Shown here: piece after piece, positions 3,951 through 61,023 of the stretch | Numbering within the stretch: position 1 is the stretch's first letter | Layout of the letters: each line of letters begins with the position of its first letter | NCBI GenBank assembly: GCA_965218085.1 | Contig: CBDCKF010000002.1 | Span: 3,912,288-3,976,287 of the forward strand | DNA from: Terriglobia bacterium | Lineage (GTDB): Bacteria; Acidobacteriota; Terriglobia; 20CM-2-55-15 | Direction: 5' to 3' | DNA: 64,000 nt | Notes under the pieces: model-generated | Told to the model about the DNA's origin: nothing | The model's input: the letters and a program-made list of their open reading frames with translations, nothing else | Databases searched by the model: none | Made by a program: the position numbers and the translations under genes

Positions 3951-4023
3951 TGGTGGGAGTTCCTCCTCGGGAATGGGTATTGATACCAAGACCATCCAGC
4001 GGGTATCATCTCCACTTGTCTAT

Positions 4024-4097
4024 GGGGTCGTAGTTCAGCTGGTTAGAACGCCGGCCTGTCACGCCGGAGGTCGCGAGTTCGAGTCTCGTCGGCCCCG
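4024..4097 (+). tRNA. tRNA-Asp (GTC)
   Basis: ggggtcgtagttcagctggttagaacgccggcctgtcacgccggaggtcgcgagttcgagtctcgtcggccccg. Cloverleaf with anticodon loop ctGTCac and T-loop ttcgagt. Confidence 0.9.
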
Positions 4098-4115
4098 TTT
4101 ATTTGCTGTAACTTA

Positions 4116-4181: not shown

Positions 4182-4532
4182 ACGCTTGGCACGCGCGGCG
4201 ATACGCAGCCCTTCATCGCTTTGGCCAAGGCGCTCAAGGCGCGGGGTCACGATGTTGTGCTGGGCCCACCGGAGAACTTCGAGTCTTCGATCGAAGACCA
4301 TGGACTCGCGTATCTCTCCATCGGTGTCGATATGCGGACCTTCGTTCAGTCTCTCGAGGCGCGCAAAGTCATGCGCGGTGACGTTTTTGCCATGGCACGG
4401 ATGTGGTCGAGGGTCATTGTCGGGTTAACGCGAAGATCGCTGGAAGCCATTTGGGAGATATCGTGCGAGGGCTTGTTTGGAAGAAGAAATCGCGTCTGTG
4501 CGCGTCCATCGTCGATAAAGAGCGTGCAATGA
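4182..4532 (+). pseudogene. N-terminal fragment of a GT1/MGT-family glycosyltransferase (no start codon, truncated after ~115 codons)
   Basis: Translation TLGTRGDTQPFIALAKALKARGHDVVLGPPENFE... is a typical UDP-glycosyltransferase N-terminus. It begins directly after an in-frame TAA (4179-4181) and ends far short of the ~400 aa expected. Confidence 0.45.
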
Positions 4533-4615
4533 ACGTGGCTGAAGATATAGCATTGAAAGGAACAGGAGAAAATTAAGATCCCACACCACTAACGAACGTC
4601 GCCACGGAGTTTAAA

Positions 4616-6001
4616 ATGATCCCTTGCAAGCCCCGGTCATCGATTTTCGCTCGGAAAACGGCAGTGCTCACTATCTTTGCATTCTTGGCGACGATAGGAA
4701 TTTTCACCGCTGGCGGGAGCCCGCAGCGATTAGAGCGAACACAAACTTTTGGAACAGACCGCCTCCTATCCCTGGAGCAGCTGCCGCAACCGAATGGGGC
4801 GTTCTACCCTTCGGTTCCGGCCGGCGCATCCATAAACCTGTCGGCGGCGTTCGAGCAATCGGCGGTGCCAGCAGGCGAGGGGACGGCTTCCCGGGATCCG
4901 CTCCGGGTGATCCGCGATCCTTACCCCAGCTTCAGCTCGGTGGCTGTCGACATGGAGCGCGGTGAAGTGGTGGCGGGCGACGAGAACCTGTTCCAAGTCC
5001 TGGTGTACGACCGGCTTGCGAACACTCCGCCCCAGGCGACGCTGACCGAACCCGTGCGAGTGATTGCGGGTGATCAGACGGGACTCGAATTTGTTTGCGG
5101 CATGCACCTGGATCAGACCACAGGAGATGTTTACATAATTAACGCTGATACCGCGGCGCAGATGCAAGTGTTTACCCGCTCACAGGAGGGCAATGTGCCG
5201 CCCTCGCGAGTGCTGAACACCGGCCACCGGATCAGAGGACGCGGCATCGCCGTCGATTCGGACAACAATGAACTCTTCCTTGCCAGCCAGCACAACGCCG
5301 CGCTGGCGGTTTTCCGCCTCGATGCCGAGGAGAACGAGCTGCCGATCCGCCTGCTCCAGGGCGATCGAACACGACTGGCCAACCCTCATGGGATTGCTTT
5401 CGACAGCCAGAGTGGCCTGCTCTACGTCAGCAACCATGGGCAGGTATCGAGTCGGCCGGTGCGGGCGGAGGTGGAAGACCGGGACGAGGTGCAGCCGAAC
5501 GTCCCCCTGCCAAGAAGTATGGCGTTGCCGGGATCAGGCCGGTTCCAGCCGCCGTCGATCAACGTGTATCGCCGTACCGCCAGCGGCAACACACCGCCGC
5601 TACGCGTGATCGAAGGACCCAGGACGCAGTTGAATTGGCCTGCGGGCGTCGCGATCGACGAGCGCCGAGGCGAGCTGTATGTCGCCAACGACACCGGTAA
5701 TTCGGTGCTGGTGTTCCGCGCGGATGCATCGGGCGACGTGGCGCCTATTCGCGTAATCGAGGGACCCAACACTAAATTGGATGCCCCCGGGGGCGTGTTC
5801 CTGGATACCCGGAACAACGAACTTTGGGTCTCCAACTACGGGAATCACTCGCTGACCGTTTTCGCTCTCACAGCGGACGGCGACACCGCACCGCTCCGGC
5901 TGATCAGAAGCGGACCGGCCGACAGCCGGGCGCTGATGATCGGCAATCCGGGCGCTGTGGCCTATGACACAAGACGGGAAGAGATTCTGGTGCCCAACTG
6001 A
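4616..6001 (+). CDS. Secreted beta-propeller repeat protein (NHL/lactonase-like), part 1. Ends at in-frame TGA.
   Basis: Signal/TM N-terminus. Repeated ...VYVANDTGNSVLVFR... blades. Paralog of 8252..9466. Confidence 0.6.
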   Translation: MIPCKPRSSIFARKTAVLTIFAFLATIGIFTAGGSPQRLERTQTFGTDRLLSLEQLPQPNGAFYPSVPAGASINLSAAFEQSAVPAGEGTASRDPLRVIRDPYPSFSSVAVDMERGEVVAGDENLFQVLVYDRLANTPPQATLTEPVRVIAGDQTGLEFVCGMHLDQTTGDVYIINADTAAQMQVFTRSQEGNVPPSRVLNTGHRIRGRGIAVDSDNNELFLASQHNAALAVFRLDAEENELPIRLLQGDRTRLANPHGIAFDSQSGLLYVSNHGQVSSRPVRAEVEDRDEVQPNVPLPRSMALPGSGRFQPPSINVYRRTASGNTPPLRVIEGPRTQLNWPAGVAIDERRGELYVANDTGNSVLVFRADASGDVAPIRVIEGPNTKLDAPGGVFLDTRNNELWVSNYGNHSLTVFALTADGDTAPLRLIRSGPADSRALMIGNPGAVAYDTRREEILVPN

Positions 6002-6811
6002 GTCGCCCATCCGCAGATTGCGGTATTCGCCAGGCTGGCGGATGGCACAAATGGAATGACTCGGAGGATTGAAGGACAGCAGACTCTTTTGACCCGGACC
6101 ATGCACGCGATCCACTACAACGAAGTTCGTGACGAGATCGTGGCGCCAAATCAGTTCGCGCAGGCTATCCTGACCTTCCGCGCCTCGGCCGTTGGGGAGG
6201 AACCGCCGATCCGTGTCATACAGGGCGATCGCACCCAGCTGGAGGGATCGTCGGGCGTCGTGATCGACACCAAACACAACGAGATCATTACGGAGGGCAA
6301 AGTTTTCCCGATTGACGCGGACGGCAACGTCCCGCCGAGCCGAACGCTCGCGTACTCGGTGGATGCCGTCGACATGGACAACGATCTTTACATCGACGCG
6401 CGCGGAGGTAACGCAGGAACCCGGCTCATGATATACGACCGCAACTCCGACAGTGCCGAACCGCTGCGGGTCATCAGCGGACCGAGGACGATGTTGATCA
6501 ATCCGAGGAGGATTCGAGTCCACAATGGCTGGATCCTGGTCGCGCACGACGGAGTCCAGACTGACAATCCAAACAACCTGTCTTTTGTCGGGATCTGGAG
6601 CGTCAACGACGAAGGCAACGTGCCGCCTCGGTGGACTTATGGCGGACCCAACGAGATGCTCGATAAGCCCCGCGGTGTCGACGTGGACCCGCTGCATCAA
6701 ACAATCATCGTGACTGATAAGACGTTGAACGCTGTGTTGACGTACTATGCGCCGGAGATTTTCGGAGAACCCGGGACGGAGAGCCGGCGGCTTGAAGAGC
6801 CGGCGGATTGA
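6002..6811 (+). CDS. Beta-propeller repeat protein, part 2 (same frame, directly after the TGA). First ATG at 6056.
   Basis: VAHPQIAVFARLADG... conserved with the paralog 7403..8251 from the codon immediately after the TGA. Confidence 0.5.
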   Translation, partial: VAHPQIAVFARLADGTNGMTRRIEGQQTLLTRTMHAIHYNEVRDEIVAPNQFAQAILTFRASAVGEEPPIRVIQGDRTQLEGSSGVVIDTKHNEIITEGKVFPIDADGNVPPSRTLAYSVDAVDMDNDLYIDARGGNAGTRLMIYDRNSDSAEPLRVISGPRTMLINPRRIRVHNGWILVAHDGVQTDNPNNLSFVGIWSVNDEGNVPPRWTYGGPNEMLDKPRGVDVDPLHQTIIVTDKTLNAVLTYYAPEIFGEPGTESRRLEEPAD

Positions 6812-7402
6812 TCAGAGCAGGCCGGGGGCGAGTTGGCATTGGCTCCCGTGGAGGCTCTCTGGCAGGGCTTGAGCGATTGGTTGCGGCCATTCGGTGCCTT
6901 CAGCACATGCCCGCAAAATGAAGTGTCCGGTCCTCGAGGAGCCCCCCGACTGGATCAGGAGGCCGTCGAAACGGTTCGCTCGTACATCTCCACGTACCGC
7001 GTGACGATCGTCTCGTGACAGAATTCACGATGCGCGTGCCTGCGGCCCGCCCCATGCCCAAGCGCAGTTCCCTGTCGCCCAACAGAGCATTCACAGCACC
7101 CGTCATCGATGGGGTGTCGCCGACCTCGAAGGGAAATCCATCGGCGACTTAGTACACCACTTCGGGGACGCTTCCCAACCGCTTTGCGACCACGGGGACC
7201 TCTGAGGCCATGGCTTATTGCAACCCGTCCGAAGGCATCGAACGGCAGTTCTGCATCGTCGTGGTGGCAATGTTCCAGCAGCCTGTGGAAACAACCGTTC
7301 AACTCTGGTCGTGGCAACGGACCCCGCCGGTGGGCGCCCTCTGGTATGACTGCTGTTCCTCCAGTATCCGGATCCGCCCACCGGCTTAAGGAGAATCGGT
7401 TC

Positions 7403-8251
7403 TCAGAAGATCTCAGGTACTGAAAACACCAGAATGCCCTGATTGCGCATATCTGAGACGATCACTTCCTGATCGTCCGGGTTCAAGACCACTCCGAAAG
7501 GCTTCTTGAGCTGGGTTGTAGGGCCCACAGGGATTTTCCAAATCGGAGGAACATCCCCGTTATCATCGTAACTCCAGACGCCTATAAACGCTTCCTCCGG
7601 TTCCATTGCATCTTGAATCCCTGGCATCGCGGCAATGATCAGCCTCCGCTGGGGATAGGTCTGCATCTGGTTGATCCGGATAATTTCCGACTTCGGACCG
7701 CGGATAACAGCCCGTGGCGCTACGTTTCCTTCGTCCGTCCGGTTAAACACCAGGATTGCGCCTGTCTCTGAGTCACTTCGTCCTATGCTGGCCTCATAGG
7801 TTCCGAAGCTGCTCTGTGTTCCGACGACCAGAATATCGTTGATCGGATCCACGGCAAGCCCATGGAGTCTCCTCAACCCGGTGTCCGGACCCGTGAGCAC
7901 TCGAATCGGTGCAACGTCACCGTTGGCTTCGCGCGGATAGACCTTAATACTGTCGTTGGTGTAGGTGAAAATCTCATCGTGAATGTTGTCCACGTCTATC
8001 CGGCTGCCGATCTCACCGGTATTGGAGCCCTGGATAGTGCGAATAGGCGACTCCTGTCCATCGGCTCCTCCGGCGAACGTCAGTATGGCCTCTGAATATG
8101 GGACCGGTACAACGATTTCATCGTTGATCGCGTCGTAGCGTACGTCATGCATGGTGCGGGACAGCCTGCTGGCCTGTCCATAGAGTGTTCGGACCGGTGT
8201 TTCTCCTCCGTCCGCCAACCTGGCGAACATCGCAATCTGCGGATGCGCCAC
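7403..8251 (-). CDS. Beta-propeller repeat protein, part 2 (paralog of 6002..6811). GTG immediately after the TGA.
   Basis: (V)AHPQIAMFARLADGGETPVRTLYGQ... contiguous and in frame with 8252..9466. Confidence 0.5.
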   Translation of the reverse strand: MAHPQIAMFARLADGGETPVRTLYGQASRLSRTMHDVRYDAINDEIVVPVPYSEAILTFAGGADGQESPIRTIQGSNTGEIGSRIDVDNIHDEIFTYTNDSIKVYPREANGDVAPIRVLTGPDTGLRRLHGLAVDPINDILVVGTQSSFGTYEASIGRSDSETGAILVFNRTDEGNVAPRAVIRGPKSEIIRINQMQTYPQRRLIIAAMPGIQDAMEPEEAFIGVWSYDDNGDVPPIWKIPVGPTTQLKKPFGVVLNPDDQEVIVSDMRNQGILVFSVPEIF

Positions 8252-9466
8252 TCAGTTGGGCACCAGGATCTCTCCCCGTCTGCTGTCGTAGCCAACGGCT
8301 CCGGGATTGCCGATCATGAGGCTCTCCGTCCCTACTGGCGCTCCTCGAATCGTTCTAATGGGTTCGACATCCCCATTGGCCGTCACCGGGAAAACCGTCA
8401 CCGAGGGGGTGCCCATGCTCGCCACAAACAACTCGTCCAGTCGTTCATCCAGCGCAATACCAGGAGGATGTTGGATTCCGGTATTGGGTCCCGCGATGAC
8501 GCGGATCGGAGCCACATCGCCTTCGGCCGAGGCGTTGAATATCAGTATGGAGCTGTCGGCATCATTGGCCACAAACAGTTCCTGCCTTTCAACGTGCAGT
8601 GCCATGTGTGAAGGCCAATTCATCAACGTTCGAGGTCCTTCGATAGTCCGAAGAGGTGCCGTATTTCCTGAAGCGTTCAGGGGATACACGGTGATCGATG
8701 GCAGCTCAAAGCTGCCATAGGTTTCACCGGTCTCCGGATTCCGGTTTTGAGCATTGCCGAAATTGCTCACGTACATGAGATTGTTTGTCGTGTCCAGGGC
8801 AATCCCGTGCGGATCTTCCAGTTGCGTATCCGGCCCTTCGAGAGTCCGAAGTGGTTGTTCTTCACCTTCGGCCTGCTTGCGGAACACATGCACGTAACCG
8901 CTCTGATTCACGACGAACAACTCCTGCCGTTCTTCGTCCGCGGCAACGGAGAATCCCCGAATGCTTGCCAGGAACCGATCCGGCGCGACGTTGCCCCGGG
9001 CGTCTGTCGAAAAAACCGGCAGCCAGTCCTGGGTATCATTGTTGAGCACATAGATGTCCAGCGTCACCGGATCAATGTAGACCGCACACATCATTTCGGC
9101 TTTTGTGTTGGTTCCCGAAATGACGCGTCGGGGTTCTGTGAATCGGGCTTGAGGCGGCGTATTTTCGCGACTGTCATACTCCAGGATCTGAAACAAATTC
9201 TCGTCCGTGACCACCAGCATGTTGCTTTCGGAATTGACCGCCACGGCGCTGAACGCCGGATTCGGATCTCGGATGAAACGCAGCGGAGGTCGCTCAATCA
9301 CCACCGGCGTCCTGTCCTCCTGGCCCTGCACCGCCGTCACGGCCGCAGAGGCAACCCCGGAAATGTCGCCGCTATCGATTAGAACGACTTGAGCCACCCA
9401 GACGATCAATCCCGCTAAGACGAGCTGAAGTCGCCAACCTATCCTGTCGCGAAAAGTTTTGGCCAT
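8252..9466 (-). CDS. Secreted beta-propeller repeat protein, part 1 (paralog of 4616..6001). Ends at in-frame TGA.
   Basis: ~50% identical to the plus-strand copy, with the same EILVPN-TGA ending. Confidence 0.6.
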   Translation of the reverse strand: MAKTFRDRIGWRLQLVLAGLIVWVAQVVLIDSGDISGVASAAVTAVQGQEDRTPVVIERPPLRFIRDPNPAFSAVAVNSESNMLVVTDENLFQILEYDSRENTPPQARFTEPRRVISGTNTKAEMMCAVYIDPVTLDIYVLNNDTQDWLPVFSTDARGNVAPDRFLASIRGFSVAADEERQELFVVNQSGYVHVFRKQAEGEEQPLRTLEGPDTQLEDPHGIALDTTNNLMYVSNFGNAQNRNPETGETYGSFELPSITVYPLNASGNTAPLRTIEGPRTLMNWPSHMALHVERQELFVANDADSSILIFNASAEGDVAPIRVIAGPNTGIQHPPGIALDERLDELFVASMGTPSVTVFPVTANGDVEPIRTIRGAPVGTESLMIGNPGAVGYDSRRGEILVPN

Positions 9467-9740
9467 TGCTCAACCTCCAAATGGGAGAACCCCTATGTAC
9501 TTGAGTATTGGCGCGATTATCAGAGGGCCGACACCCGAAGTCAAGCGCACAGGCGAAATACGAAGCCTCTTGGCAGGGAAGAAGGTGCGGATATGTGATG
9601 ATTCCGGCACATCGCGCTAGGAGCATGGGATCGACGACATGAACCGAAGAGGCGTTCCGCCCTTGGCGGATAAGCGAAATAAGCAGGGGCGGACGATTAT
9701 GGCAGCGCTGTCAGTGTACGTCGTCAAAGTCATTCGCACA

Positions 9741-9781
9741 GATACGTCACTTGTCTAAAAAGATACGTCACTTGTCTAAAA
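9741..9781. repeat. Tandem direct repeat 2 x ~21 bp (gatacgtcacttgtctaaaaa) in an intergenic region
   Basis: Seen directly at 9741-9781. Confidence 0.6.
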
Positions 9782-9946
9782 GATGATTGTCAAGTTATAC
9801 CACTCCAGTCTTGAGGTTCTTGGTCCTGCGTCGACCGGTTGATCTGGCATCGTTTGTGAGGACCTGAGAGTTTTCTTGCGTATAAATTCCATCCGTAGTT
9901 ACATTTACCCAATTTTTAGCGGTTCGGTCCGCGACACATTAAAACA

Positions 9947-9997
9947 ATGGCATCCGGCACCAAACTGGGGCACTTCGAGATCCCTACTGCCATCTGA
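9947..9997 (+). pseudogene. Ser/Thr protein kinase 5' stub (MASGTKLGHFEI...)
   Basis: Shares the conserved start and leader (tttagc...atggNatccggcaccaaact) with the stub at 25517. Stops after 16 codons. Confidence 0.4.
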
Positions 9998-10154
9998 ATG
10001 TCGGCATGCCCCGGAGCGAGCCGTGTACGAAATGAAATTGAGCCAATACATTTTCCGAGTCAACATGCAGCTTAAGGTATTTTTTTGTCGCACAAAGGAG
10101 GTTGCTGAATGGTATCGCGAATAGAAAACGGCAAGCCGTTCATCGGGGGGGATC

Positions 10155-10469
10155 GTGATCCTCACCAATATTGAAACCGTACCGGGCAAACGCATCGTTG
10201 AGCACTACGGCTTGGTCCAAGGCAGCACGATTCGTGCGAAACATCTGGGTACAGATCTGGGTGCCAGCCTAAAGAACATCGTCGGCGGGGAACTCAAGGG
10301 CTATACCGAACTGCTCCAGGAATCCCGGCGTGAGGCACTGGAACGCGCGAAGGCTCAGGCAACCGAACTCGGCGCCAACGCGGTGGTAAACGTCCGCTTC
10401 GCCACGTCTTCGGTCGCGCAGGGAGCGGCGGAGATCCTCTGCTACGGAACGGCGGTCAAGGTGGAGTAG
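10155..10469 (+). CDS. ybjQ: YbjQ/DUF74 (UPF0145) family protein
   Basis: MILTNIETVPGKRIVEHYGLVQGSTIRAKHLG... is the canonical YbjQ fold sequence. Confidence 0.7.
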   Translation: MILTNIETVPGKRIVEHYGLVQGSTIRAKHLGTDLGASLKNIVGGELKGYTELLQESRREALERAKAQATELGANAVVNVRFATSSVAQGAAEILCYGTAVKVE

Positions 10470-10925
10470 ATGGCGGAACTGATCGGCCAGCTCTCTGTGC
10501 CCCTGGTACTGCTTCTGCTTGGTTTTTTCGCAGGCCGGGTTGCAGAACGGAATCATTACAAGAGCATCCACGAACGCGAAGAGAAATTCCTGTCCAAACC
10601 GACAATTACAACGAAAACGATTGAGGACGGACGGCAGGTTCAAAATGCAGCACTTGCGACCGGTTCGATCGTGGTCAGCGTGGATTACTTCAAACGATTT
10701 CTTTCCGCGTTCCGAATGCTGTTCGGCGGGGAACTCGGAGCTTACGCCTCGGTACTGGACCGCGGGAAACGGGAAGCCGTCCTCCGTATGAAAGAATCCT
10801 GCCCATCAGCCGACGTGTACCTTAATTTCCGGATCGAAACCGCTTCGATATCCAAGGGCAGGGGGAAAACCATCGGTTCGGTCGAGGTTGTCGCCTACAG
10901 CACGGCCGTCAAGTTTAAGGCATGA
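10470..10925 (+). CDS. Membrane-anchored YbjQ/DUF74-like protein
   Basis: N-terminal TM helix followed by a YbjQ-like domain. ATGA overlap with the next gene. Confidence 0.55.
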   Translation: MAELIGQLSVPLVLLLLGFFAGRVAERNHYKSIHEREEKFLSKPTITTKTIEDGRQVQNAALATGSIVVSVDYFKRFLSAFRMLFGGELGAYASVLDRGKREAVLRMKESCPSADVYLNFRIETASISKGRGKTIGSVEVVAYSTAVKFKA

Positions 10926-11476
10926 AGTTCGTCCCCAAAAGACTTCACAAGACCGCGGACATCTCCAGAGGCAAGACGAGCTTCAAAGGCTGGGTCAAGC
11001 ATGTCGTTTTCGGAGTGGTGACCATCGTTGTCCTATACTTTGGAATTGGCCTGGTCACCGACCTGGTCGTCACCAACATTTCTGAGGAAACAGAAGTATT
11101 GTTGTTTTCCTGGACGTTCAGGGCGATGGCCGTGGCATCCGACGACGAAGACGAAGAACTGGATCGCGCTGAGGCGATTTTCTCGAAGCTCATTGAAAAG
11201 TCCGATGTCCGTCCCCTGCCCTACGAGCTTTTCGTGATGGACCTGCCGGACCCAAACGCACTGGCTCTTCCGGGTGGTGGTGTCGGGGTGACTCGCGGTC
11301 TGCTGGAAAGAGTCGAAAGCGAAACCGGCCTTGCCATGGTCCTGGCTCACGAACTGGGCCATCACGAGGGTCGGCACAGCTTGAAACGGCTGGGCCGAAC
11401 TCTGGCTTGGAACACCCTGCTTGGCGTGGCATTGGGCGGTAGCGTTGACCTGTCTCCCCTAGCAGCCCGTGGTTAA
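10922..11476 (+). pseudogene. M48/HtpX-like zinc metallopeptidase, 5' part, interrupted by IS5-like insertion
   Basis: HELGHHEGRH zinc motif. The reading frame runs into the IS end (IS-encoded LAARG*). The C-terminal part resumes at 12972. Confidence 0.75.
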
Positions 11477-12969
11477 AGTCCACTTCACAGATTCAAACGG
11501 ACCCGATTTCAAACGGACCCGATGCGACCGTATCGCGAAGAATGATGAGTGAAGGAGGACGGGATATGGGCATGGGACGAAAGAGACGACGCCAGGAATC
11601 GCTGTGGATCGCGACACAGGAGTTGCCGCGGACCAAAGGACACGTGTTCTACGAACGGGTGAACCGGATTCTGGAAGAAGACGGATTCGACCCGTTTGTT
11701 GAAGAAGCCTGCCAGAAGTTCTACGCCCCGGTGATGGGTCGGCCCGGTGTCGTGCCGGGTGTGTACTTTCGGATGCTGCTGGTCGGCTACTTCGAAGGGA
11801 TTGACTCGGAACGCGGCATCGCCTGGCGGTGTGCCGACTCGCTGAGCCTGCGGGAGTTTCTGGGCATTGGGCTGACCGATGGTACCCCGGATCATTCCAG
11901 CGTGTCGCGGACACGCCGGCTGATCGATCTGGAAACCCATGCCCAGGTGTTCCACTGGATGCTGGAGCGGCTGGCCGGGCACGGGTTGATCGACGGGAAG
12001 ACGGTTGGCGTGGACGCGACGACGCTGGAAGCGAACGCGGCAATGCGGTCGATCGTGCGGCGAGACACCAGGAACAGTTATGAGGACTTTCTGAAGGAGT
12101 TGGCCCACGCTTCGGGCATTGAAACGCCGACACGAGCCGAACTGGCGCGACTGGACCGGAAACGGCCGAAGAAGGGATCGAACGACGACTGGGTGCATCC
12201 CGACGACGCGGATGCGCAGATCACCAAGATGAAAGACGGCCGCACGCATTTGGCTCACAAGCTGGAACACGCTGTGGATATGAAGACCGGCGTCGTGCTG
12301 GGGGTGACGGTTCAGGGTGCTGCCACCGGGGATACGACGACAATCAAAGAGACGTTGATCCGCACGGCCGAGAACATGGAGAAGCTGGCAAGCAACCCGA
12401 AAACCGAAGCGCAGATTCGAGAAGATTGGTTTTCTGAAGTCGTCGCCGATAAGGGATATCACAGCAACGAAACGATGGTCGATCTTCGCGAATTGGGGAT
12501 ACGCACCTACATCTCGGAACCGGATCGGGGCCGTCGCCGCTGGAAGAACAAGCCGGACGAACAACAGGCTGTCTATGCCAATCGCCGTCGAATCCGTGGA
12601 GAACGCGGCAAGGAGTTGTTGCGGCATCGCGGCATGATGCTGGAACGACCCTTCGCTCACGGTCTGGAAACCGGCGGCATGCGACGGGTTCACCTTCGAG
12701 GACGGGAAAATATCCTGAAACGGATCCTGGTTCACTACGCGGCCTTGAACCTGGCGTTGATCCTGCGCCAGAAGTTCGGGCAGGGCACGCCACGGAGCCT
12801 GCAGGACCGGTCTGCGGCATACTTTGCCGCTCAAATCGTGCTCTTCTGCGTCCAGATGGCGCTTCAAACGCATCATGAACTCCGTCAGCTGGATATCGAG
12901 CCCAACGTGGCTATCGAATCCGACGTTACGACTGTATCAGAGAATCTCACTTCTGCCACGGGCTGCTAG
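11459..12969 (+). mobile_element. IS5/IS1182-superfamily insertion sequence, copy 1 (~1.5 kb)
   Basis: Terminal IR ctagcagcccgtgg / ccacgggctgctag and CTAG on both sides. Nearly identical to copy 2 at 52044..53537 apart from a 16-bp internal duplication (ttcaaacggacccga) in copy 1. Confidence 0.85.
11542..12969 (+). CDS. IS5-family DDE transposase (475 aa, intact)
   Basis: MMSEGGRDMGMGRKRRRQESLWIATQELPRTKGHVFYERVNRILEEDGFD... The stop lies inside the right IR. Confidence 0.85.
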   Translation: MMSEGGRDMGMGRKRRRQESLWIATQELPRTKGHVFYERVNRILEEDGFDPFVEEACQKFYAPVMGRPGVVPGVYFRMLLVGYFEGIDSERGIAWRCADSLSLREFLGIGLTDGTPDHSSVSRTRRLIDLETHAQVFHWMLERLAGHGLIDGKTVGVDATTLEANAAMRSIVRRDTRNSYEDFLKELAHASGIETPTRAELARLDRKRPKKGSNDDWVHPDDADAQITKMKDGRTHLAHKLEHAVDMKTGVVLGVTVQGAATGDTTTIKETLIRTAENMEKLASNPKTEAQIREDWFSEVVADKGYHSNETMVDLRELGIRTYISEPDRGRRRWKNKPDEQQAVYANRRRIRGERGKELLRHRGMMLERPFAHGLETGGMRRVHLRGRENILKRILVHYAALNLALILRQKFGQGTPRSLQDRSAAYFAAQIVLFCVQMALQTHHELRQLDIEPNVAIESDVTTVSENLTSATGC

Positions 12970-12971
12970 AG

Positions 12972-13220
12972 TTGGGAGTACGACTGACCGAATCCGGCTA
13001 CGGGCGCGATCAGGAACGCGACGCCGATCGATTCGCGATGCGACTCGTCCACGAAGTCTATGGCCATACAGAGGGCACGCTGGAGTTTTTCGAGCTTGTC
13101 CAGTCCGAGTCCGGCCAGGACGAATCTGAGTGGCTCGAGTTCGTATCCACTCACCCGCTCACGACCGATCGCATATCCGATCTGAAGGAACTACAAGAGG
13201 AATTAGACGCACGGGAATAG
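12972..13220 (+). pseudogene. M48 peptidase 3' part (resumes after the IS)
   Basis: GYGRDQERDADRFAMRLV...STHPLTTDRI is the C-terminal M48 glutamate/STHP region. Confidence 0.7.
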
Positions 13221-13248
13221 GGTCTTGTGAACCTAACCCTCAGAGGCC

Positions 13249-13301
13249 GAATCGTCCTGAACTGGTTTGAAGAACTGAAGGAACGGGTGCCGGTGCGGTA
13301 G
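13249..13301 (+). repeat. Kinase C-terminal box #1 (…IVLNWFEELKERVPVR*) with no palindrome
   Basis: Member of a six-copy family of ~55-bp coding-like boxes. Confidence 0.5.
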
Positions 13302-13382
13302 GGCAAGCGGCCACTATGCCGAGACTAGCGGAATTGGCAGAAACATTGCATCTAAGGATTGGTGCTTGGCTCGGAAAAAAGG

Positions 13383-14261
13383 TTATTTGACCAGTTCCAT
13401 TCCTTCAGCCACTATCTGGTCGACAAACTGTTGTTGCCATCCATCAATAGCCTTTCGATAACCTTCAGGATCGATGAATGCCCTGTAGCCTTCTCCCTGC
13501 TTCATACGTATTATCTTGTCACCCAGACCGTACCAGTAACCGTGTCCGCCCAGAAAAATATCCACCGGCATTTTCTTCAGCTTTTCAAATGTGCCTGCAA
13601 AGTCCTCTGCCATATTCGGATATTCGGGGTGACCCAAAACGGGCCTTGCTGCAATTCTGACACCACCTAGTAACAAGACATTATATTTTTGATTATCCTC
13701 CTCTGCGACCATGGAAAATGAAATGCACCCTCTGGTATGCCCCGGCGTAAGGTTGACAGTTAGTGCTATATCACCAAGCCGTATGACTTCCCCGTCCTCT
13801 ACGACCCGGTCAACCTTTGCAGGCCGCCAGTCGCCGCCTCTGAAGTCAGTTGCGCCCCCAGTCTCAATCACCTCTTTGTCTGCGGCAGATGCCAGGATTG
13901 ATGCCCCTGTCATTTCCTGCATACGATAATGACCTTCAACATGATCGCTATGTGCATGGGTACCAATAATTAACATGATGTCTTCTGGATCGAAACCCAG
14001 CTTTTTGATGTTATTTATAATGACCGGGACAGAGACATCATAAGCAGTATCAATGATGATATGTCCATCCGACCCCGTAACCAGGTAAGAAGCAGCCTGC
14101 ACATACTCTCCGACGAAATAAATATTGTCGACAATATTAAAGGGTTCAACGGGTACGGTTCGATCTGGATGGTCCTCGGGCGGTGAGACCGGTGCTTGCG
14201 CCAGGGCGCCCACGGAATACAGAAGAAATACCAAGATACTAATCACATCTGACTTTTTCAT
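13383..14261 (-). CDS. Subclass B3 metallo-beta-lactamase (secreted)
   Basis: Signal peptide MKKSDVISILVFLLYSVGALA. GTHAHSDH (HxHxDH) plus downstream His and GHTRGC motifs as in L1/GOB/FEZ enzymes. By eye the gene is ~47% GC against ~60% for its surroundings. Good SD (agggggaaaaaaATG). Confidence 0.8.
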   Translation of the reverse strand: MKKSDVISILVFLLYSVGALAQAPVSPPEDHPDRTVPVEPFNIVDNIYFVGEYVQAASYLVTGSDGHIIIDTAYDVSVPVIINNIKKLGFDPEDIMLIIGTHAHSDHVEGHYRMQEMTGASILASAADKEVIETGGATDFRGGDWRPAKVDRVVEDGEVIRLGDIALTVNLTPGHTRGCISFSMVAEEDNQKYNVLLLGGVRIAARPVLGHPEYPNMAEDFAGTFEKLKKMPVDIFLGGHGYWYGLGDKIIRMKQGEGYRAFIDPEGYRKAIDGWQQQFVDQIVAEGMELVK

Positions 14262-14417
14262 TTTTTTCCCCCTGACCTGTGATGGATTGTTGAGTCTATC
14301 AAAAAGCTGCGATTCCCAGCCATCGGAAGCAGAACAATCTGATGCATCCGTTCCCTTAATAGCAATTCGTTCTTGGAAGTGGCAGACGAACAGGTTAAGT
14401 GGCGGTCTGTCCCCCAA

Positions 14418-14502
14418 ATCAACGTCGTCCTGAACTGGTTTGAAGAACTGACCGAACGGGTGCCGGCGCCGTGATTTTCGAGGTCAAGTCTCGAGAAATC
14501 AT
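14418..14502 (+). repeat. Kinase C-terminal box #2 (INVVLNWFEELTERVPAP*) plus left half of the 37-bp palindrome
   Basis: gtcaagtctcgagaaatcat is the left palindrome half, ending exactly at the IS30 junction site. Confidence 0.5.
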
Positions 14503-14574
14503 GCCGGCTCAATCGGTCGATGCAACACATGCGTTAAATCGTTCGGCCGGAGTCCGAAACCCCAGCGTTTGACG
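14503..14574 (-). mobile_element. IS30-family right-end remnant (encodes transposase C-terminus …TPAERFNACVASTD*)
   Basis: gccggctcaatcggtcgatgcaacacatgcg... matches the right end of the IS30 copy at 33047. Confidence 0.5.
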
Positions 14575-14885
14575 AAGCCGTATCTGACAAATTTCGGATG
14601 CTATGGAGTTTCTGGTAGGCACACAGTCCAGTGGACCGTATCGTCGAAAAGTAAAGCGGGCCGTACCGTTGGAACGGCCCGGAAGTCGCGGCCTGAGGCT
14701 CGATGTGATCCCATCACCTTCTGTTGATGCAGTCCACTAGATACGCCCTCGAGTCGCGTTCGACGCTCGATCGCGGCCCGCCTGATCTGGCCGAGGGTCT
14801 TCGCCGCTGGTTATGGAACCTCGATGTAGTCGAACAAGGCATCCGGCGCATGGCCGAACGCCCCGTTCCAATCGCCGGATAGCTC

Positions 14886-15848
14886 TTACGGCTCGAGCGA
14901 GGCGAGGTAGGCCGAGAGATTGAGAACATCCTCGTCGGTCAAATCGGCGACCGCGCTCCGCATGAGGGCCGCATTCGCGCCACCGCGGGCACCGTGTCTA
15001 ATGTCAAACATCTGGCGCGCGAGATAGATGGGTGAGCGACCCGCGATGCTGGGAACCTGCCCGAGACCTTTTAGATCTGGGCCGTGACACAGCGAGCACT
15101 GAATAGAGCGCCCCCCGTCCGTGGTCGCAAGCTCCTTGCCCGCCGCAACGCTTCCAGGAGGGACATAGGCCATAAACGGGCTATGCGAATCCCGCAGCTC
15201 GGCCAATTCGGAATTTTCGGGAATCTCGATAATACGATTTCCGATAGGCTCCATCCCGCCACCCTGCTCGGCATGGCGCATATTGCCGCCGCCCACATAG
15301 GTTTCGGGAACCATGTCGGCCTCTATGACGGTTATCCATTTCACCGGCGGCAGCGAAGCAAAATATTCTGCGGCAATCCGCATTTCCTCTTCGGTCATTG
15401 CACCGGCGATTGCAATCATGCTCCTCGAACGTGCCGGAACAAGACTTTCACGGGTGCCTCTCTGATAGGCCATCGACTGCGCGACAATGTAGTCGGCCGG
15501 TAAACCGGCAAGGCTCGCCGATTCCGGATGTCCGGCACCGTGCGGCATGTGGCACTGGGCGCAGGCGCGCACCAGCGGTTGGCGGCCACGCGCCACCACT
15601 TCGGGCATTGGCGGATGCTCGTCCGGATACCAATCGGGCGGCGCAAACCGATCATTGATCTGCGTTTGGGTAAGCTGAAGATCGCTTCCCTCCACGCTGT
15701 GGAGCGTCCCGTCGTCCGGGCCCCGTCCGCGACCTTCCTCCATTACCGGATAGGCCCAGGGGGGAGGCTCGAAACCATCGACGGATTGGGCGACCACAGC
15801 ACCGACACAGAACGCAACGAGCACCGCAACACCGACTAGTTTCTTCAT
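14886..15848 (-). CDS. Secreted di-heme c-type cytochrome
   Basis: Signal peptide and two CxxCH motifs (CAQCH, CSLCH). Confidence 0.75.
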   Translation of the reverse strand: MKKLVGVAVLVAFCVGAVVAQSVDGFEPPPWAYPVMEEGRGRGPDDGTLHSVEGSDLQLTQTQINDRFAPPDWYPDEHPPMPEVVARGRQPLVRACAQCHMPHGAGHPESASLAGLPADYIVAQSMAYQRGTRESLVPARSRSMIAIAGAMTEEEMRIAAEYFASLPPVKWITVIEADMVPETYVGGGNMRHAEQGGGMEPIGNRIIEIPENSELAELRDSHSPFMAYVPPGSVAAGKELATTDGGRSIQCSLCHGPDLKGLGQVPSIAGRSPIYLARQMFDIRHGARGGANAALMRSAVADLTDEDVLNLSAYLASLEP

Positions 15849-51242: not shown

Positions 51243-52047
51243 ATGCGACGCAATCTTATCTTAGGAGGGCTGGCTAGCCTGGTGGTGGTAGTTCTAATGG
51301 CACACCCTGTCTTGGCACAGGTCGACCTAAATGGCGACGGCAAGGTCGATGCTGTTTTCACGAAAATAGGCGTACAGCAAGCGAATCCATACAGCCAAGT
51401 CTGCTTCGGCGACGGGGCGGGCGGTTTCTCCTCGTGCAGTGATGTAAAGGGTGGAATTACGGACGAAATAGCAACAAACGCCTTGACCACCGCGGCAGCT
51501 CTGGGCGATTTCGATGGCGACGGCGACGTCGATATCTTCTTTTCGATGCAATCTAGGGCGCCATTTCCAAGTGGAGTAGGTATGACGGCTTCGAATGCGT
51601 TGTGTGTGAACGACGGCACAGGTGCGTTTCCAGACTGCCTCACCATGGGCGCAGGAAAAATTAGCGAAGATGTAGCCCTGGGCGATCTGAACGGTGACGG
51701 CAAGCTTGACGCCGTTCTTGCGAATTCAGGAGGTCCAGCTTTAAGCGAGAAGAACTTCGTCGTTTTAGGCGCCGGTGGACTAGGCACCGTGGGCGTAGAA
51801 CCATTTTACAACACGCAAAACCTCAGCACCGGGGTGGCGCTGGGTGACGTCGACCAAGACGGCAAGCTCGATGTCGTTTTCGCAAATTCCGGCGCGCTGA
51901 ATACTGTTTGTATCAACGATGGCAACACTGCAGGTCAAGCGGGTCAACCTCCAGAACCTTCGTTCACGTGCAGTGACATCAGCCTTGCTCCCCGTCCCGG
52001 GCTGTTTACACCCACCCCTCAGAACACGACCAACGCAGTAGCTCTAG
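51243..52047 (+). pseudogene. Secreted FG-GAP/VCBS-repeat protein, 5' part (interrupted by IS5-like copy 2)
   Basis: Signal peptide. Repeated GDxDGDGKxD FG-GAP motifs. The frame runs into the IS end (…ALAARG…). Confidence 0.7.
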
Positions 52048-53467
52048 CAGCCCGTGGCAGAAGTGAGATTCTCTGACACAGTCGTAACGTCGGATTCGAT
52101 AGCCACGTTGGGCTCGATATCCAGCTGACGGAGTTCATGATGCGTTTGAAGCGCCATCTGGACGCAGAAGAGCACGATTTGAGCGGCAAAGTATGCCGCA
52201 GACCGGTCCTGCGGCTCCGTGGCGTGCCCTGCCCGAACTTCTGGCGCAGGATCAACGCCAGGTTCAAGGCCGCGTAGTGAACCAGGATCCGTTTCAGGAT
52301 ATTTTCCCGTCCTCGAAGGTGAACCCGTCGCATGCCGCCGGTTTCCAGACCGTGAGCGAAGGGTCGTTCCAGCATCATGCCGCGATGCCGCAACAACTCC
52401 TTGCCGCGTTCTCCACGGATTCGACGGCGATTGGCATAGACAGCCTGTTGTTCGTCCGGCTTGTTCTTCCAGCGGCGACGGCCCCGATCCGGTTCCGAGA
52501 TGTAGGTGCGTATCCCCAATTCGCGAAGATCGACCATCGTTTCGTTGCTGTGATATCCCTTATCGGCGACGACTTCAGAAAACCAATCTTCTCGAATCTG
52601 CGCTTCGGTTTTCGGGTTGCTTGCCAGCTTCTCCATGTTCTCGGCCGTGCGGATCAACGTCTCTTTGATTGTCGTCGTATCCCCGGTGGCAGCACCCTGA
52701 ACCGTCACCCCCAGCACGACGCCGGTCTTCATATCCACAGCGTGTTCCAGCTTGTGAGCCAAATGCGTGCGGCCGTCTTTCATCTTGGTGATCTGCGCAT
52801 CCGCGTCGTCGGGATGCACCCAGTCGTCGTTCGATCCCTTCTTCGGCCGTTTCCGGTCCAGTCGCGCCAGTTCGGCTCGTGTCGGCGTTTCAATGCCCGA
52901 AGCGTGGGCCAACTCCTTCAGAAAGTCCTCATAACTGTTCCTGGTGTCTCGCCGCACGATCGACCGCATTGCCGCGTTCGCTTCCAGCGTCGTCGCGTCC
53001 ACGCCAACCGTCTTCCCGTCGATCAACCCGTGCCCGGCCAGCCGCTCCAGCATCCAGTGGAACACCTGGGCATGGGTTTCCAGATCGATCAGCCGGCGTG
53101 TCCGCGACACGCTGGAATGATCCGGGGTACCATCGGTCAGCCCAATGCCCAGAAACTCCCGCAGGCTCAGCGAGTCGGCACACCGCCAGGCGATGCCGCG
53201 TTCCGAGTCAATCCCTTCGAAGTAGCCGACCAGCAGCATCCGAAAGTACACACCCGGCACGACACCGGGCCGACCCATCACCGGGGCGTAGAACTTCTGG
53301 CAGGCTTCTTCAACAAACGGGTCGAATCCGTCTTCTTCCAGAATCCGGTTCACCCGTTCGTAGAACACGTGTCCTTTGGTCCGCGGCAACTCCTGTGTCG
53401 CGATCCACAGCGATTCCTGGCGTCGTCTCTTTCGTCCCATGCCCATATCCCGTCCTCCTTCACTCAT
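52019..53467 (-). CDS. IS5-family transposase, copy 2, with a 1-nt deletion altering the last ~55 codons
   Basis: Identical to copy 1 up to …GQGTPRS, then gagccgcagg instead of gagcctgcagg shifts the frame and reading continues past the IS end. Confidence 0.75.
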   Translation of the reverse strand: MSEGGRDMGMGRKRRRQESLWIATQELPRTKGHVFYERVNRILEEDGFDPFVEEACQKFYAPVMGRPGVVPGVYFRMLLVGYFEGIDSERGIAWRCADSLSLREFLGIGLTDGTPDHSSVSRTRRLIDLETHAQVFHWMLERLAGHGLIDGKTVGVDATTLEANAAMRSIVRRDTRNSYEDFLKELAHASGIETPTRAELARLDRKRPKKGSNDDWVHPDDADAQITKMKDGRTHLAHKLEHAVDMKTGVVLGVTVQGAATGDTTTIKETLIRTAENMEKLASNPKTEAQIREDWFSEVVADKGYHSNETMVDLRELGIRTYISEPDRGRRRWKNKPDEQQAVYANRRRIRGERGKELLRHRGMMLERPFAHGLETGGMRRVHLRGRENILKRILVHYAALNLALILRQKFGQGTPRSRRTGLRHTLPLKSCSSASRWRFKRIMNSVSWISSPTWLSNPTLRLCQRISLLPRAARATALVVF

Positions 53468-53537
53468 CATTCTTCGCGATACGGTCGCATCGGGTCCGTT
53501 TGAATCTGTGAAGTGGACTTTAACCACGGGCTGCTAG
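52044..53537 (-). mobile_element. IS5/IS1182-superfamily insertion sequence, copy 2 (inverted relative to copy 1)
   Basis: Same IRs and CTAG flanks as copy 1. Lacks the 16-bp duplication. Confidence 0.85.
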
Positions 53538-55351
53538 GCGACGTGAACGCCGACGGTGTCCTTGACGCCATTTTTGCGAACACCGGACTCAATGAAAGAT
53601 GTATCGGCAACGGTACGGGCAGTTTCACTTGTACTGCACTCACGGCCACCTTAGAGAGGACAAGTGTCGGCGTGGCTGTGGGGGAACTTGGCTCTTTCGG
53701 TGACAGCTTTGCCGATATCGTTATTGCGAATGAGACAGAGGACGCCCAAATCTGCTTGGGGTTTACCTGCTTTTCTATCACCTCCGTACAATCCTCTACC
53801 GGAGTGGCTATCGGCGACGTGGACGGCGACGGCGACCTCGAATCCGTTTTTTCGAAATTTCTCTCAGCAAATCGTGTCTGCAACATTACTACGTGCACGG
53901 ATGCCAGCACACTCACGGGGAGATTTTCAGGCGTTGCGCTGAGCGACGGCCGAACATTCGAAGAAGATTTCAGTGGTACCGTGATCACGAATCTGGAAGA
54001 CGAGGATAACGCGTACACCGTATCGGGCGGCAAGATCAAGAACACGGCCTCTACGAGCGTTAACGATAGGCATTATATTCGGACCCATGTGACCGACTAC
54101 AACACCGTTGACTTTGTCGCTGAATTGACGTTTACGCTGACCAACGACACCGGTGACATGCTCCATTTTTTCGGACTGGGAGCAGGGATCCCAGATTTGA
54201 ATGCCACGGACGAACCAGCAACTGGGGCCTATTTCAGGATCCATAGCCCTAATACTGTGTCAGGAAGGGTGGACGCTTCTTTCAGAAACTTGACGTTTGC
54301 TGGCTCCGACGGCCTAGCGAACATCGGCCAAATGACCAATAGCGGCGGCACCCACCGGGCGCGGCTTGCCAAATCCGGGAACGAGTTGACTTTTAGCATG
54401 GACGTCAATTTCGATGGCATTGACGACGATGGGGATGGTTCGGTGTTCGATGCGGCTTTCACCTACACGGTCGCTGACCTGACCGCGGCAACGGCTGCGC
54501 CGTTTCTCGACAACACGAATAGTCGTATCTTTTTCGGCACAGCTTCTAGGATCGACACATTCGATGATTTCAAAGTCACGGCTGTTGTCGTCGCTGACAC
54601 GACAGCGCCGGTCGTCACTGTACCAAGTGACATCACGGAAGAAGCTACCAGTCCCGATGGAGCCGACGTCACCTTCTCGGCCTCAGCAACAGACGACGTG
54701 GACGGTTCGTTGACCCCGAGCTGTACGCCGTCGTCAGGCTCCACGTTCCCGCTCGACATGACCACCGAGGTTAGATGCGAGGCAACCGATAGCTCTAACA
54801 ACACCGGTGAGGCCTTCTTCGACGTGACGGTGGAAGATACGACCTCTCCCCAGTTCACCTCGGTTCCGGTCGATTTCGAAGTCGGCACGACTTTCGAGAA
54901 CCCACTTCAGGCGTTGGTTGAGTTCCAGGTTTCCGCGACTGACGCCGTGGGTGCGACTGTCACCTGTGTGCCGTCGTCGGGCTCCCTATTCCCTATCGGT
55001 CCGACCCAGGTCGATTGCGAGGCAAACGATGCCGCCGGCAATCCCCCTGCGACGACTTCGTTTAACGTCACAGTGCTCGGCTTTGGGGATCAAGTGGATG
55101 CCCTGGCCGAACTTGACGAAATTGACGCGTTACCCGCGAACATACAGCGCGGGCTCGACAACTTCCTGGCGTTCATTTCGAGGGTCGGCGACTCTAACCC
55201 GAACTCGGGCATCGCCGTCTCCGGAATGCTAGGCTCGTTTCAAAATCAGGTGCGCGCCCTGGTGCGGTCGCGCCGACTCTCTCCGGAAAATGGCGATGCG
55301 CTGATCAGCGCTACCGAGACAGTCCGAAACAACCTCGATCCTAGAAGGTAG
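53534..55351 (+). pseudogene. FG-GAP repeat protein 3' part with HYR domains (continuation of 51243)
   Basis: …GDVNADGVLDAIFANTG… FG-GAP, then DTTAPVVTVPSDITEEATSPDGADVTFSASATDDVDGSLTPSCTP HYR repeats. Confidence 0.7.
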
Positions 55352-56854: not shown

Positions 56855-57400
56855 ATGAGTAAACCACCCACGGAAAAAGCAACGCTTGGCGGTGGTTGCT
56901 TCTGGTGCCTCGAAGCCGTGTTCGAGCAACTCCAGGGCGTCCACTCTGTCCAGTCCGGTTATTCCGGCGGCGCTCGCCCCGATCCCAGCTACGAACAGGT
57001 CTGTTCCGGAGCAAGCGGTCATGCCGAGGTTGTCCAGATCGTTTTCGATCCCTCAGTGACACCCTATCGGGAAGTTCTACAAATCTTTTTCTCGATCCAT
57101 GACCCGACCACGCTCAATCGTCAAGGCAACGATGCCGGCACACAATACCGTTCGGTGATCTTCTCCCATTCTGAGGAACAGATGGACATCGCCCGAACGG
57201 TTATTGAAGAATTGGATCAATCCGGCGTTTTCTCTGCACCTGTCGTGACCGAGCTGAGCCCCCTGGAACATTTCTATCCTGCCGAGGACTACCACCAGGA
57301 ATACTTTCGCCAGAATTCGGAACAACCGTACTGCCAGTACGTCATCGACCCCAAAGTCGCCAAGTTCCGTGCGCAGTACTTCGACAAGCTAAAAAATTAA
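56855..57400 (+). CDS. msrA: Peptide methionine-S-sulfoxide reductase
   Basis: GGGCFWC active-site motif. Full-length MsrA. Confidence 0.9.
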   Translation: MSKPPTEKATLGGGCFWCLEAVFEQLQGVHSVQSGYSGGARPDPSYEQVCSGASGHAEVVQIVFDPSVTPYREVLQIFFSIHDPTTLNRQGNDAGTQYRSVIFSHSEEQMDIARTVIEELDQSGVFSAPVVTELSPLEHFYPAEDYHQEYFRQNSEQPYCQYVIDPKVAKFRAQYFDKLKN

Positions 57401-60820: not shown

Positions 60821-61023
60821 AGAGAAAATCCAACGCAGAGACGCAGAGGGAAAACAGGTGATCTGTGTGGATTTCGTCTGACGAGATTTCTATGGGTTCC
60901 AAACGACGTTCGTGTTAACCCGATCCGCGCGGGTCGAACGGTATGTAGACAGCCTATCCCGTCTTTCTCTTTCTTCCTTTGCGTCTCTGCGTTTTTCTTC
61001 TCCTAAATGGTGAAAGTTTGCTA

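Follow-up and report, generated by a model that had tools for sequence, protein, structure and literature searches.

In canonical bacterial selenoprotein genes, exemplified by FdhA/fdhF, an in-frame UGA is aligned with the cysteine (Cys) of homologous proteins and is followed by a stem-loop within the open reading frame (ORF) that has a G first in its loop, lies 16-37 nt away and has a minimum free energy (MFE) below -7.5 kcal/mol (Zhang & Gladyshev model as summarised in PMC13188914). The published model of such a bacterial selenocysteine insertion sequence (bSECIS) describes an apical loop of 3-9 nt, an upper stem of 4-16 bp, a UGA-to-loop distance of 16-37 nt, a G in the first two loop positions (N1-G-[G/U]-N-N2) and an MFE <= -7.5 kcal/mol (PMC13188914). 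Decoding proceeds via selA, selB, selC and selD, and the Acidobacteria are known users of selenocysteine (Sec) (PMC1794560; PMC12013277). Here we analysed a 64-kb stretch of the genome of a Terriglobia bacterium (contig CBDCKF010000002.1, positions 3,912,288 to 3,976,287; hereafter, the window), which contains two inverted paralogous beta-propeller genes, each of them split in two by a TGA codon. Like the canonical genes, both have an in-frame UGA aligned with the Cys of homologs and an intra-ORF stem-loop of the kind described, and a complete set of sel genes was found beside a relative. From the comparison of sequences, we consider it about 90% probable that each split pair is one gene in which the in-frame TGA encodes Sec.

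According to this reading, each of the two paralogs would be one gene and encode an exported protein (~690-730 residues) that consists of two six-bladed NHL-type beta-propellers, and the Sec decoded from the UGA would take the place of the only invariant Cys of the wider family. The original prediction, made from the window alone, had proposed that the TGA is read through, as Sec or by programmed readthrough, or that both parts belong to one functional unit. Sec is now the favored option, given the Cys column in homologs, the restriction of the junction codon to TGA, TGC and TGT, the covarying hairpin downstream and the sel genes beside a relative.

The junction codon of the propeller genes

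The copy on the + strand (4616..6811) is a single frame of 731 codons with a signal-anchor N-terminus, two NHL-type propeller halves and one in-frame TGA (5999..6001), the predicted Sec codon. The ORF before this codon (4616-5998) ends in ...YDTRREEILVPN (EILVPN), and the frame beyond it, VAHPQIAVFARLADGTNG... / VAHPQIAVFARLADGTNGMTRR..., continues for 269 further codons to a TGA stop at 6809-6811; the first start codon past the in-frame TGA is ATG 6056, 18 codons on and inside conserved sequence. The copy on the - strand (7403..9466) is likewise a single frame, of 687 codons, with one in-frame TGA (complement of 8252-8254), for which the alignment of homologs and the codon counts of the family predict the same role. 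Its first part (9466-8255) ends in ...YDSRRGEILVPN (EILVPN), and the TGA is directly followed by GTG and then by AHPQIAMFARLADGGETP..., in all 282 codons up to the stop at 7403-7405. Both first ATG codons are preceded by a Shine-Dalgarno sequence (GGAG at 4606-4609 on the + strand; GGAGG, complement of 9474-9478, on the - strand), and the N-termini of both proteins are hydrophobic signal anchors. The frames thus agree with the positions that the original prediction had given for EILVPN, the two TGA codons, the distant ATG of the + copy and the GTG of the - copy.

The motif EILVPN-TGA-VAHPQIA is common to both genes, with conserved coding sequence on either side. When read through, the two proteins are 44% identical overall, yet they share 24 of the 25 residues that surround the TGA, which confirms the earlier observation that conservation past the TGA exceeds the general identity of the paralogs. 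This conservation of the junction is far beyond chance, and 166 further or identical TGA copies have the same junction. As had also been noted before, TGA is an ordinary stop at ribF (628-1650; FAD_syn plus Flavokinase; TGA at 1648-1650), and it is the terminal stop of both propeller genes.

A homolog search with the fused - copy as the query returned >3,000 relatives, and most of the close ones comprise ~404 residues and have their C-terminus precisely at the TGA. Aligning homologs over this position was one of the checks proposed originally, and it placed Cys in exactly this column: 10 of the 11 full-length homologs that span the junction (641-772 residues) have Cys there (ILVPN-C-VAHPQIA) and one has Trp. 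We then collected loci from species-representative genomes (77), metagenomes (80) and protein look-ups (5), which are designated below by an L and a number, and counted the junction codon in 181 distinct family copies from Acidobacteriota genomes and metagenomes. It was TGA in 166, TGC in 13 and TGT in 2, and neither TAA nor TAG was found. The terminal stops of the same family genes (154) are divided over TGA (73), TAG (53) and TAA (28). A true stop would alternate over time between all three stop codons; the junction TGA does not, and so is not behaving as a true stop. Directly after the TGA, variation among the copies is limited to third codon positions, and both halves of the window proteins align with single-chain homologs.

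A profile search of 1.84 billion cluster representatives extended the family to 10,269 relatives, many of which stop immediately ahead of the Cys, at profile position 451, or start at 453/454. From this library, which is clustered at 50% identity, we examined 15 representatives that are full-length or span the junction, and each of them has the Cys. Its flanks differ between divergent representatives (VSDPS, IIQPQ, NTDPR), so the Cys/Sec is the most conserved residue of the junction region. Several copies may lie together in one locus: a 10-kb locus of Ca. Sulfopaludibacter (L070, CAMBFR010000022.1, ~4400-9800) contains three family copies, each with an in-frame junction stop and two of them with the variant context YLVPN*VNTPVI, and L076 contains at least two.

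It could be argued that the two parts are separate genes after all, with a true TGA stop, translation of the downstream propeller by termination-reinitiation at the adjacent GTG, and assembly of the two products into a complex. Split beta-propellers can assemble, databases annotate two proteins, and GTG follows the TGA in 142 of 150 TGA copies. However, the remaining 8, the window + copy among them, have GTC or GTA, and hence the codon after the TGA cannot always be a start; the next start of the + copy is the ATG 18 codons away in conserved sequence. Because the Cys forms also mostly carry GTG after the junction, this triplet is best seen as the commonest codon of a conserved Val, and gene callers place the starts of the downstream half inconsistently (100% versus 88% coverage classes). 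Separate genes would furthermore not account for the lack of TAA and TAG among the 181 junctions, though both are common as terminal stops of these genes, nor for Cys at the site in single-chain homologs, and they would give no role to the hairpin described below, which covaries, or to its rare but frozen AGG codon. We therefore regard this explanation as very improbable.

The model of a full-length homolog points in the same direction. AlphaFold2 predicts the Cys homolog P0120 as two six-bladed NHL propellers (predicted local distance difference test score 92.9, predicted TM-score 0.93), and in this model the chain forms one compact protein spanning the junction. Cys374, which corresponds to the Sec site, is modelled in a loop between the strands EILVP and QIAIF, about where the N-terminal half yields to the C-terminal half. 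There is only one further Cys in P0120 (EFxCG), which distant homologs do not conserve; a UxxC-type pair is therefore lacking. Similarly, there is no Cys near the Sec in the motif PN-U-VAHPQ, which differs from UxxC/CxxU on a thioredoxin-like fold. The His of a conserved RTxH motif, 35 residues downstream of Cys374, is kept in all divergent homologs checked for the motif and, judged by its conservation, may be a partner of the Sec/Cys.

With respect to known domains, NHL repeats (PF01436) score above the Pfam gathering threshold in the + copy (54.9 bits), and the lactonase propeller PF10282 covers only ~110 of 344 profile positions. Two names that databases give to family proteins correspond to models whose scores lie far below the curated cut-offs: 6-phosphogluconolactonase (NF008258) scores 24.7 bits against a cut-off of 370, and YncE (NF052280) 22 bits against 400. 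Foldseek against the PDB returned only generic tandem WD40 or YWTD propellers.

A candidate bSECIS hairpin and the sel genes of relatives

Folding the sequence downstream of the TGA in search of compensatory changes, as had been suggested originally, revealed a covarying hairpin of the SECIS type. In the RNAalifold consensus structure of 80 distinct TGA-form junctions, numbered from the U of the UGA as +1, it has a 9-bp stem (+26..+34 / +38..+46) and an apical loop A-GGN-U. Standard pairs make up 95.8% of the cells of the stem, versus 32-59% after a shift of the 3' arm by 1-3 columns, and none of 500 shuffles matched the observed pairing or covariation. The pair +27/+45, which joins two codon third positions, covaries (CG 24, GC 16, AU 13, UA 5, GU 4, UG 1), and compensated changes occur within the stem: C30-G42 is replaced by U-A through two synonymous substitutions in three loci (L017, L032, L141), C32-G40 by A-U in L041 and G31-C41 by C-G in L157. 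Synonymous sites in the stem-loop are frozen among 150 copies (TTC 144, GCC 144, AGG 143, GCG 143). Ala codons a few positions upstream of it vary freely, and AGG accounts for 11 of the 104 Arg codons in the remainder of the two window genes.

In the window, the bSECIS-like hairpin of the + copy lies at 6024..6044 (+ strand), with a 9-bp stem and the apical loop GGC at 6033-6035, and encodes (V)FARLAD; its MFE is -13.3 kcal/mol (z = -3.9). That of the - copy (8210..8228, - strand) has an 8-bp stem with a possible U-G closing pair (8229/8209), the apical loop GGU at 8218-8220 and an MFE of -11.8 kcal/mol (z = -3.2). With a GGN loop closed by A-U, a stem of 8-9 bp and a UGA-to-loop distance of 31 nt, both agree with the published bSECIS model in every respect. 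The conserved element is thus this local hairpin, and not the 8-bp stem ccatccgc/gcggatgg that had been pointed out initially: this stem, whose true position is ~6007-6014 / 6038-6045, has 76% pairing in the family, no covariation and equals in 245 of 500 shuffles. A small hairpin of 3-4 bp upstream (+13 to +25) is weakly supported, and an Rfam scan of 4400-9700 returned nothing relevant.

The Cys forms allow the fate of the hairpin to be followed. Four distant ones encode similar peptides by other nucleotides and have no canonical hairpin, the sequences at its site being UUC CCC CGC CUU GCG (L063), UUC UCG CGG CUC GCG (L160), UAC GCC AAG GCG (L161) and UUC GAA CGU AUG UCG (L162). In the P0087 clade, on the other hand, the hairpin is retained in 11 Cys forms (TGC or TGT; L078-L085, L087, L108, L142) whose proteins are 84-90% identical to the TGA forms L086 and L094, and in 4 of these 11, positions at which at least 95% of the TGA forms agree have changed (AGG to AGA twice, AGG to CGA, GCC to GCT). 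This clade would represent a recent Sec-to-Cys reversion with a decaying SECIS relic, an event that is rare in bacteria according to a 2026 review. Maintenance of the hairpin is tied to the UGA forms, with the independent Cys lineages being few (~5).

The machinery for Sec was found beside family members in related contigs. In L159, a selenium island (6609-14920) combines, within 8.3 kb, tRNA-SeC(tca) (6609-6704, - strand), selB (6723-8555, -), selA (8552-9946, -), selD (10001-11041, +), a gene for an AhpC/TSA plus DsbD_N protein (after selD, -) that has its own in-frame TGA in W-U-P-Y-C and is annotated as two ORFs, a di-haem cytochrome c gene (-), and, at the other side of the latter, a TGA family member (12770-14920, +; ILVPN-TGA-VAHPQIAVFARLA). 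As the W-U-P-Y-C gene belongs to the known UxxC Prx-like selenoprotein family and the sel set is complete, at least this lineage decodes Sec, and its propeller gene lies inside a selenium island. L158 and L159 are longer versions of the region in the metagenome contig L100, in which selD (NF002098, 503.7 bits) lies 1.8 kb upstream of a TGA family member; L158 has selA and selD near a family member. Apparent SelB matches in L066 and L155 proved to be LepA. The search for selA, selB, selC and selD that the original prediction had called for therefore has a divided outcome: all four adjoin a family member in L159, and none is present in the window.

Based on the canonical mechanism, the hairpin would act as the bSECIS element and would bring SelB-GTP-Sec-tRNA(Sec) to a ribosome that has paused on the UGA, upon which Sec would be inserted instead of termination taking place.

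It is conceivable that a stable conserved hairpin 3' of the UGA stimulates readthrough without selenium, the UGA being read by a near-cognate tRNA (Trp, Cys or Arg). The Trp at the site in one homolog would fit such programmed readthrough, as would the fact that the sel genes found lie in related contigs. However, the only alternative to the UGA in the family is a Cys codon, and Cys is chemically analogous to Sec; the hairpin has the G-G apical loop and the spacing that are specific for bSECIS elements, and a full sel set adjoins a family member together with a classical UxxC selenoprotein. To our knowledge, there is no established bacterial mechanism for efficient hairpin-stimulated UGA readthrough of such a kind, which counts further against this explanation, and we consider it highly unlikely. 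Finally, pseudogenes, assembly errors or an organism with reassigned TGA might be suspected in a window rich in insertion sequence (IS) elements and gene remnants, but such an artefact or decay is effectively refuted already by the junction-codon and terminal-stop counts and has next to no probability left: 166 independent copies, obtained from many different assemblies and sequencing technologies, share this TGA, purifying selection acts on either side of it, and TGA is an ordinary stop of ribF, of both window genes and of 73 of the 154 family genes.

Several points nevertheless weigh against decoding of the UGA as Sec. The window contains no tRNA-Sec (its only tRNAs are tRNA-Asp and tRNA-Glu) and no selA, selB or selD detectable by tblastn with E. 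coli SelA, SelB and SelD. The matches of a homolog search with SelD of L100 did not extend to the large Terriglobia contigs that carry the closest relatives of the window, and the Sec genes found are placed next to family members in related contigs only. The distance of 22 nt between UGA and stem is longer than in E. coli fdhF, though still inside the general model, and the hairpin lies within conserved coding sequence, so that part of its conservation reflects the protein. The homolog P0042, on a JGI contig of 2623 bp, is the sole full-length one with Trp at the Sec position, which could reflect either a genuine TGG or a TGA translated with a different genetic code. The matches of the fold are non-catalytic NHL domains and lactonases without an equivalent Cys, and the function of the protein is putative. 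It should also be noted that, while we directly observed a conserved pairing of UGA with Cys, covariation in the hairpin and, in a relative, linkage to sel genes, and obtained the fold by modelling, we infer the insertion of Sec itself, as well as export and a redox role.

Distribution, neighbors and probable role

The named genome loci all belong to Acidobacteriota (Terriglobia, Bryobacteraceae, Solibacteraceae, Ca. Sulfopaludibacter and 'gp5'), except for one bin labelled Verrucomicrobiia. Copy numbers are high: the minimum numbers of TGA copies per assembly are 14 (JADFGZ), 11 (CBDHGK, on one contig of 6.47 Mb), 9, 9 and 8, and the complete 3.76-Mb chromosome OZ240237 has at least 7. The - copy of the window is 96% identical at the nucleotide level to loci in related Terriglobia metagenome-assembled genomes (MAGs), and the + copy aligns over its full length with L013 at 90%. 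In L013, the ortholog of the + copy and a paralog (73% nucleotide identity to the window - copy) are arranged in tandem, whereas the window pair is convergent.

Family genes often have characteristic neighbors. A di-haem cytochrome c (~160 residues) is encoded beside the family gene in at least 22 loci, for Sec and Cys forms alike, TonB-dependent receptors are neighbors in 30 loci, a signal-peptide S-adenosylmethionine (SAM) methyltransferase lies directly 3' in 13 loci and an HMA-like CxxC protein is a neighbor in 8. None of these four types adjoins the window copies. The invariant Cys position and its modelled place in an inter-strand loop near the boundary of the halves make the Sec/Cys the most likely site of catalysis or redox activity. 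In view of the N-terminal signal anchor, the di-haem cytochrome c encoded beside one subfamily and the Sec-containing thiol:disulfide oxidoreductase that adjoins in one lineage, the protein probably functions as an oxidoreductase of the periplasm.

Upstream of the - copy, on its promoter side, the window contains two adjacent YbjQ_1 genes ('putative heavy-metal-binding'; 10155-10925, + strand). Elsewhere, HMA-like CxxC proteins and an HMBD/HupE pair were observed near family members (L069, L060, L159). The YbjQ, HMA-like and HMBD/HupE neighbors may hint at a link with metals or metalloids.

The flanks of the window copies are not syntenic with related MAGs, and between tRNA-Asp (4023-4098) and the + copy there is a remnant of 103 codons (4221-4529, + strand) that matches the N-terminal part of Glyco_transf_28 only, with 23 bits and below the cut-off. 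The remnant and the lack of synteny suggest that the region around the two propeller genes has been rearranged. Two copies of a 1464-bp IS element (DDE transposase with DUF772; 11508-12971 on the + strand and 52042-53504 on the - strand) are 99.9% identical. The first adjoins a truncated M48 peptidase gene (10922-11473), and the second interrupts a gene that, judged by repeat motifs alone, has FG-GAP/VCBS-like repeats (51243-52076 and 53513-55351). A second in-frame TGA at 53501-53503, considered as a further case of recoding, is only the junction of this IS insertion. Two further elements of ~1.5 kb, inverted and 77% identical (23925-25420 and 27860-29349), have ORFs starting with MK(N/D)(K/R)TIAVDLAKNVF and, from their sequence, look like IS110-family transposases. 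Apart from these, the ORF at 56855-57400 has an MsrA-like GCFWC motif, in the Cys and not the Sec form, and the order, sizes and N-terminal sequences of three ORFs within 58383-64000 suggest a mutagenesis cassette of the imuA-imuB-dnaE2 type.

Relation to known selenoproteins and propellers

We searched for earlier descriptions of the family in several sources. The 2026 inventory of 119 prokaryotic selenoprotein families has no propeller, NHL or lactonase-like entry (Table 1, PMC13188914), the terms propeller, NHL and lactonase are absent from the papers on deep-Sep and BSepDB, and NCBIfam release 20.0 (June 2026) has no model for the family and gives only weak sub-threshold propeller matches. 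Full-text literature searches retrieved no report of it, leaving room for an earlier listing as an unvalidated candidate, and public annotations split the family gene into two hypothetical proteins. We therefore propose, with moderate confidence, an undescribed selenoprotein family: an exported tandem NHL beta-propeller enzyme in which the invariant Cys would be replaced by Sec in ~90% of the copies recovered from Acidobacteriota of the class Terriglobia (bins labelled Bryobacteraceae and Solibacteraceae among them), each genome having at least 7-14 Sec paralogs.

If verified, this will have implications at several levels. The family would be a main reason for these abundant soil bacteria to retain the Sec machinery, and it would provide a rare case of a large selenoproteome made up from one non-thioredoxin family, in lineages that are generally regarded as aerobic. 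With at least 7-14 Sec paralogs per genome, the Terriglobia, a dominant soil group, would be substantial users of selenium, which bears on the view that aerobes rarely keep selenoproteins and on selenium cycling in soil. With regard to annotation, ~3,100 N-terminal and ~2,300 C-terminal matches, many of which end or start exactly at the TGA and which now appear as unrelated hypothetical proteins, would merge into one selenoprotein. Its unusual fold and location, an exported beta-propeller with a lone Sec, would be added to a catalogue dominated by thioredoxin-like redox proteins. Finally, more than 150 natural SECIS variants and Cys forms with decaying relics would constitute a data set for studying SelB-SECIS recognition and the direction of Sec/Cys exchange.

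Compared with FdhA/fdhF, the propeller family is unrelated in sequence and fold and has no Mo/W cofactor motif, and its Sec lies in PN-U-VAHPQ instead of UHxP. In addition, more than 150 paralogs share a near-invariant SECIS, since it codes for a conserved peptide, FARLA. The Prx-like UxxC selenoproteins (AhpC/TSA), which are neighbors of family members in L099, L100, L158 and L159, are exported as well and occur side by side with the propeller family in one lineage, and both probably take part in periplasmic redox chemistry. However, the Prx-like proteins have a thioredoxin fold and a UxxC pair, whereas the propeller protein has a single Sec and no partner Cys in its motif.

Known NHL propellers (the NHL domains of TRIM2/TRIM71, the sensor of M. 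tuberculosis PknD, NHLRC2 and SOQ1) and those of the SMP30/gluconolactonase type are single propellers. They are mostly binding modules or metal-dependent lactonases, have no Sec or conserved Cys at the site and are 13-21% identical to the family. Selenoproteins of the envelope outside the thioredoxin fold have been described before, namely the FCYXU-type TonB-dependent receptor, the GSU2204/MtrB-like protein and the multihaem ExtKL (PMC13188914), and in this respect they resemble the propeller family. These three are associated with cytochromes or outer-membrane transport, have no relation in sequence or fold to the propeller family, and the reports of them concern anaerobes like Geobacter rather than soil Terriglobia (PMC13188914). 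Based on these comparisons, the mechanism would be canonical bacterial Sec decoding, and it is the family that appears to be new.

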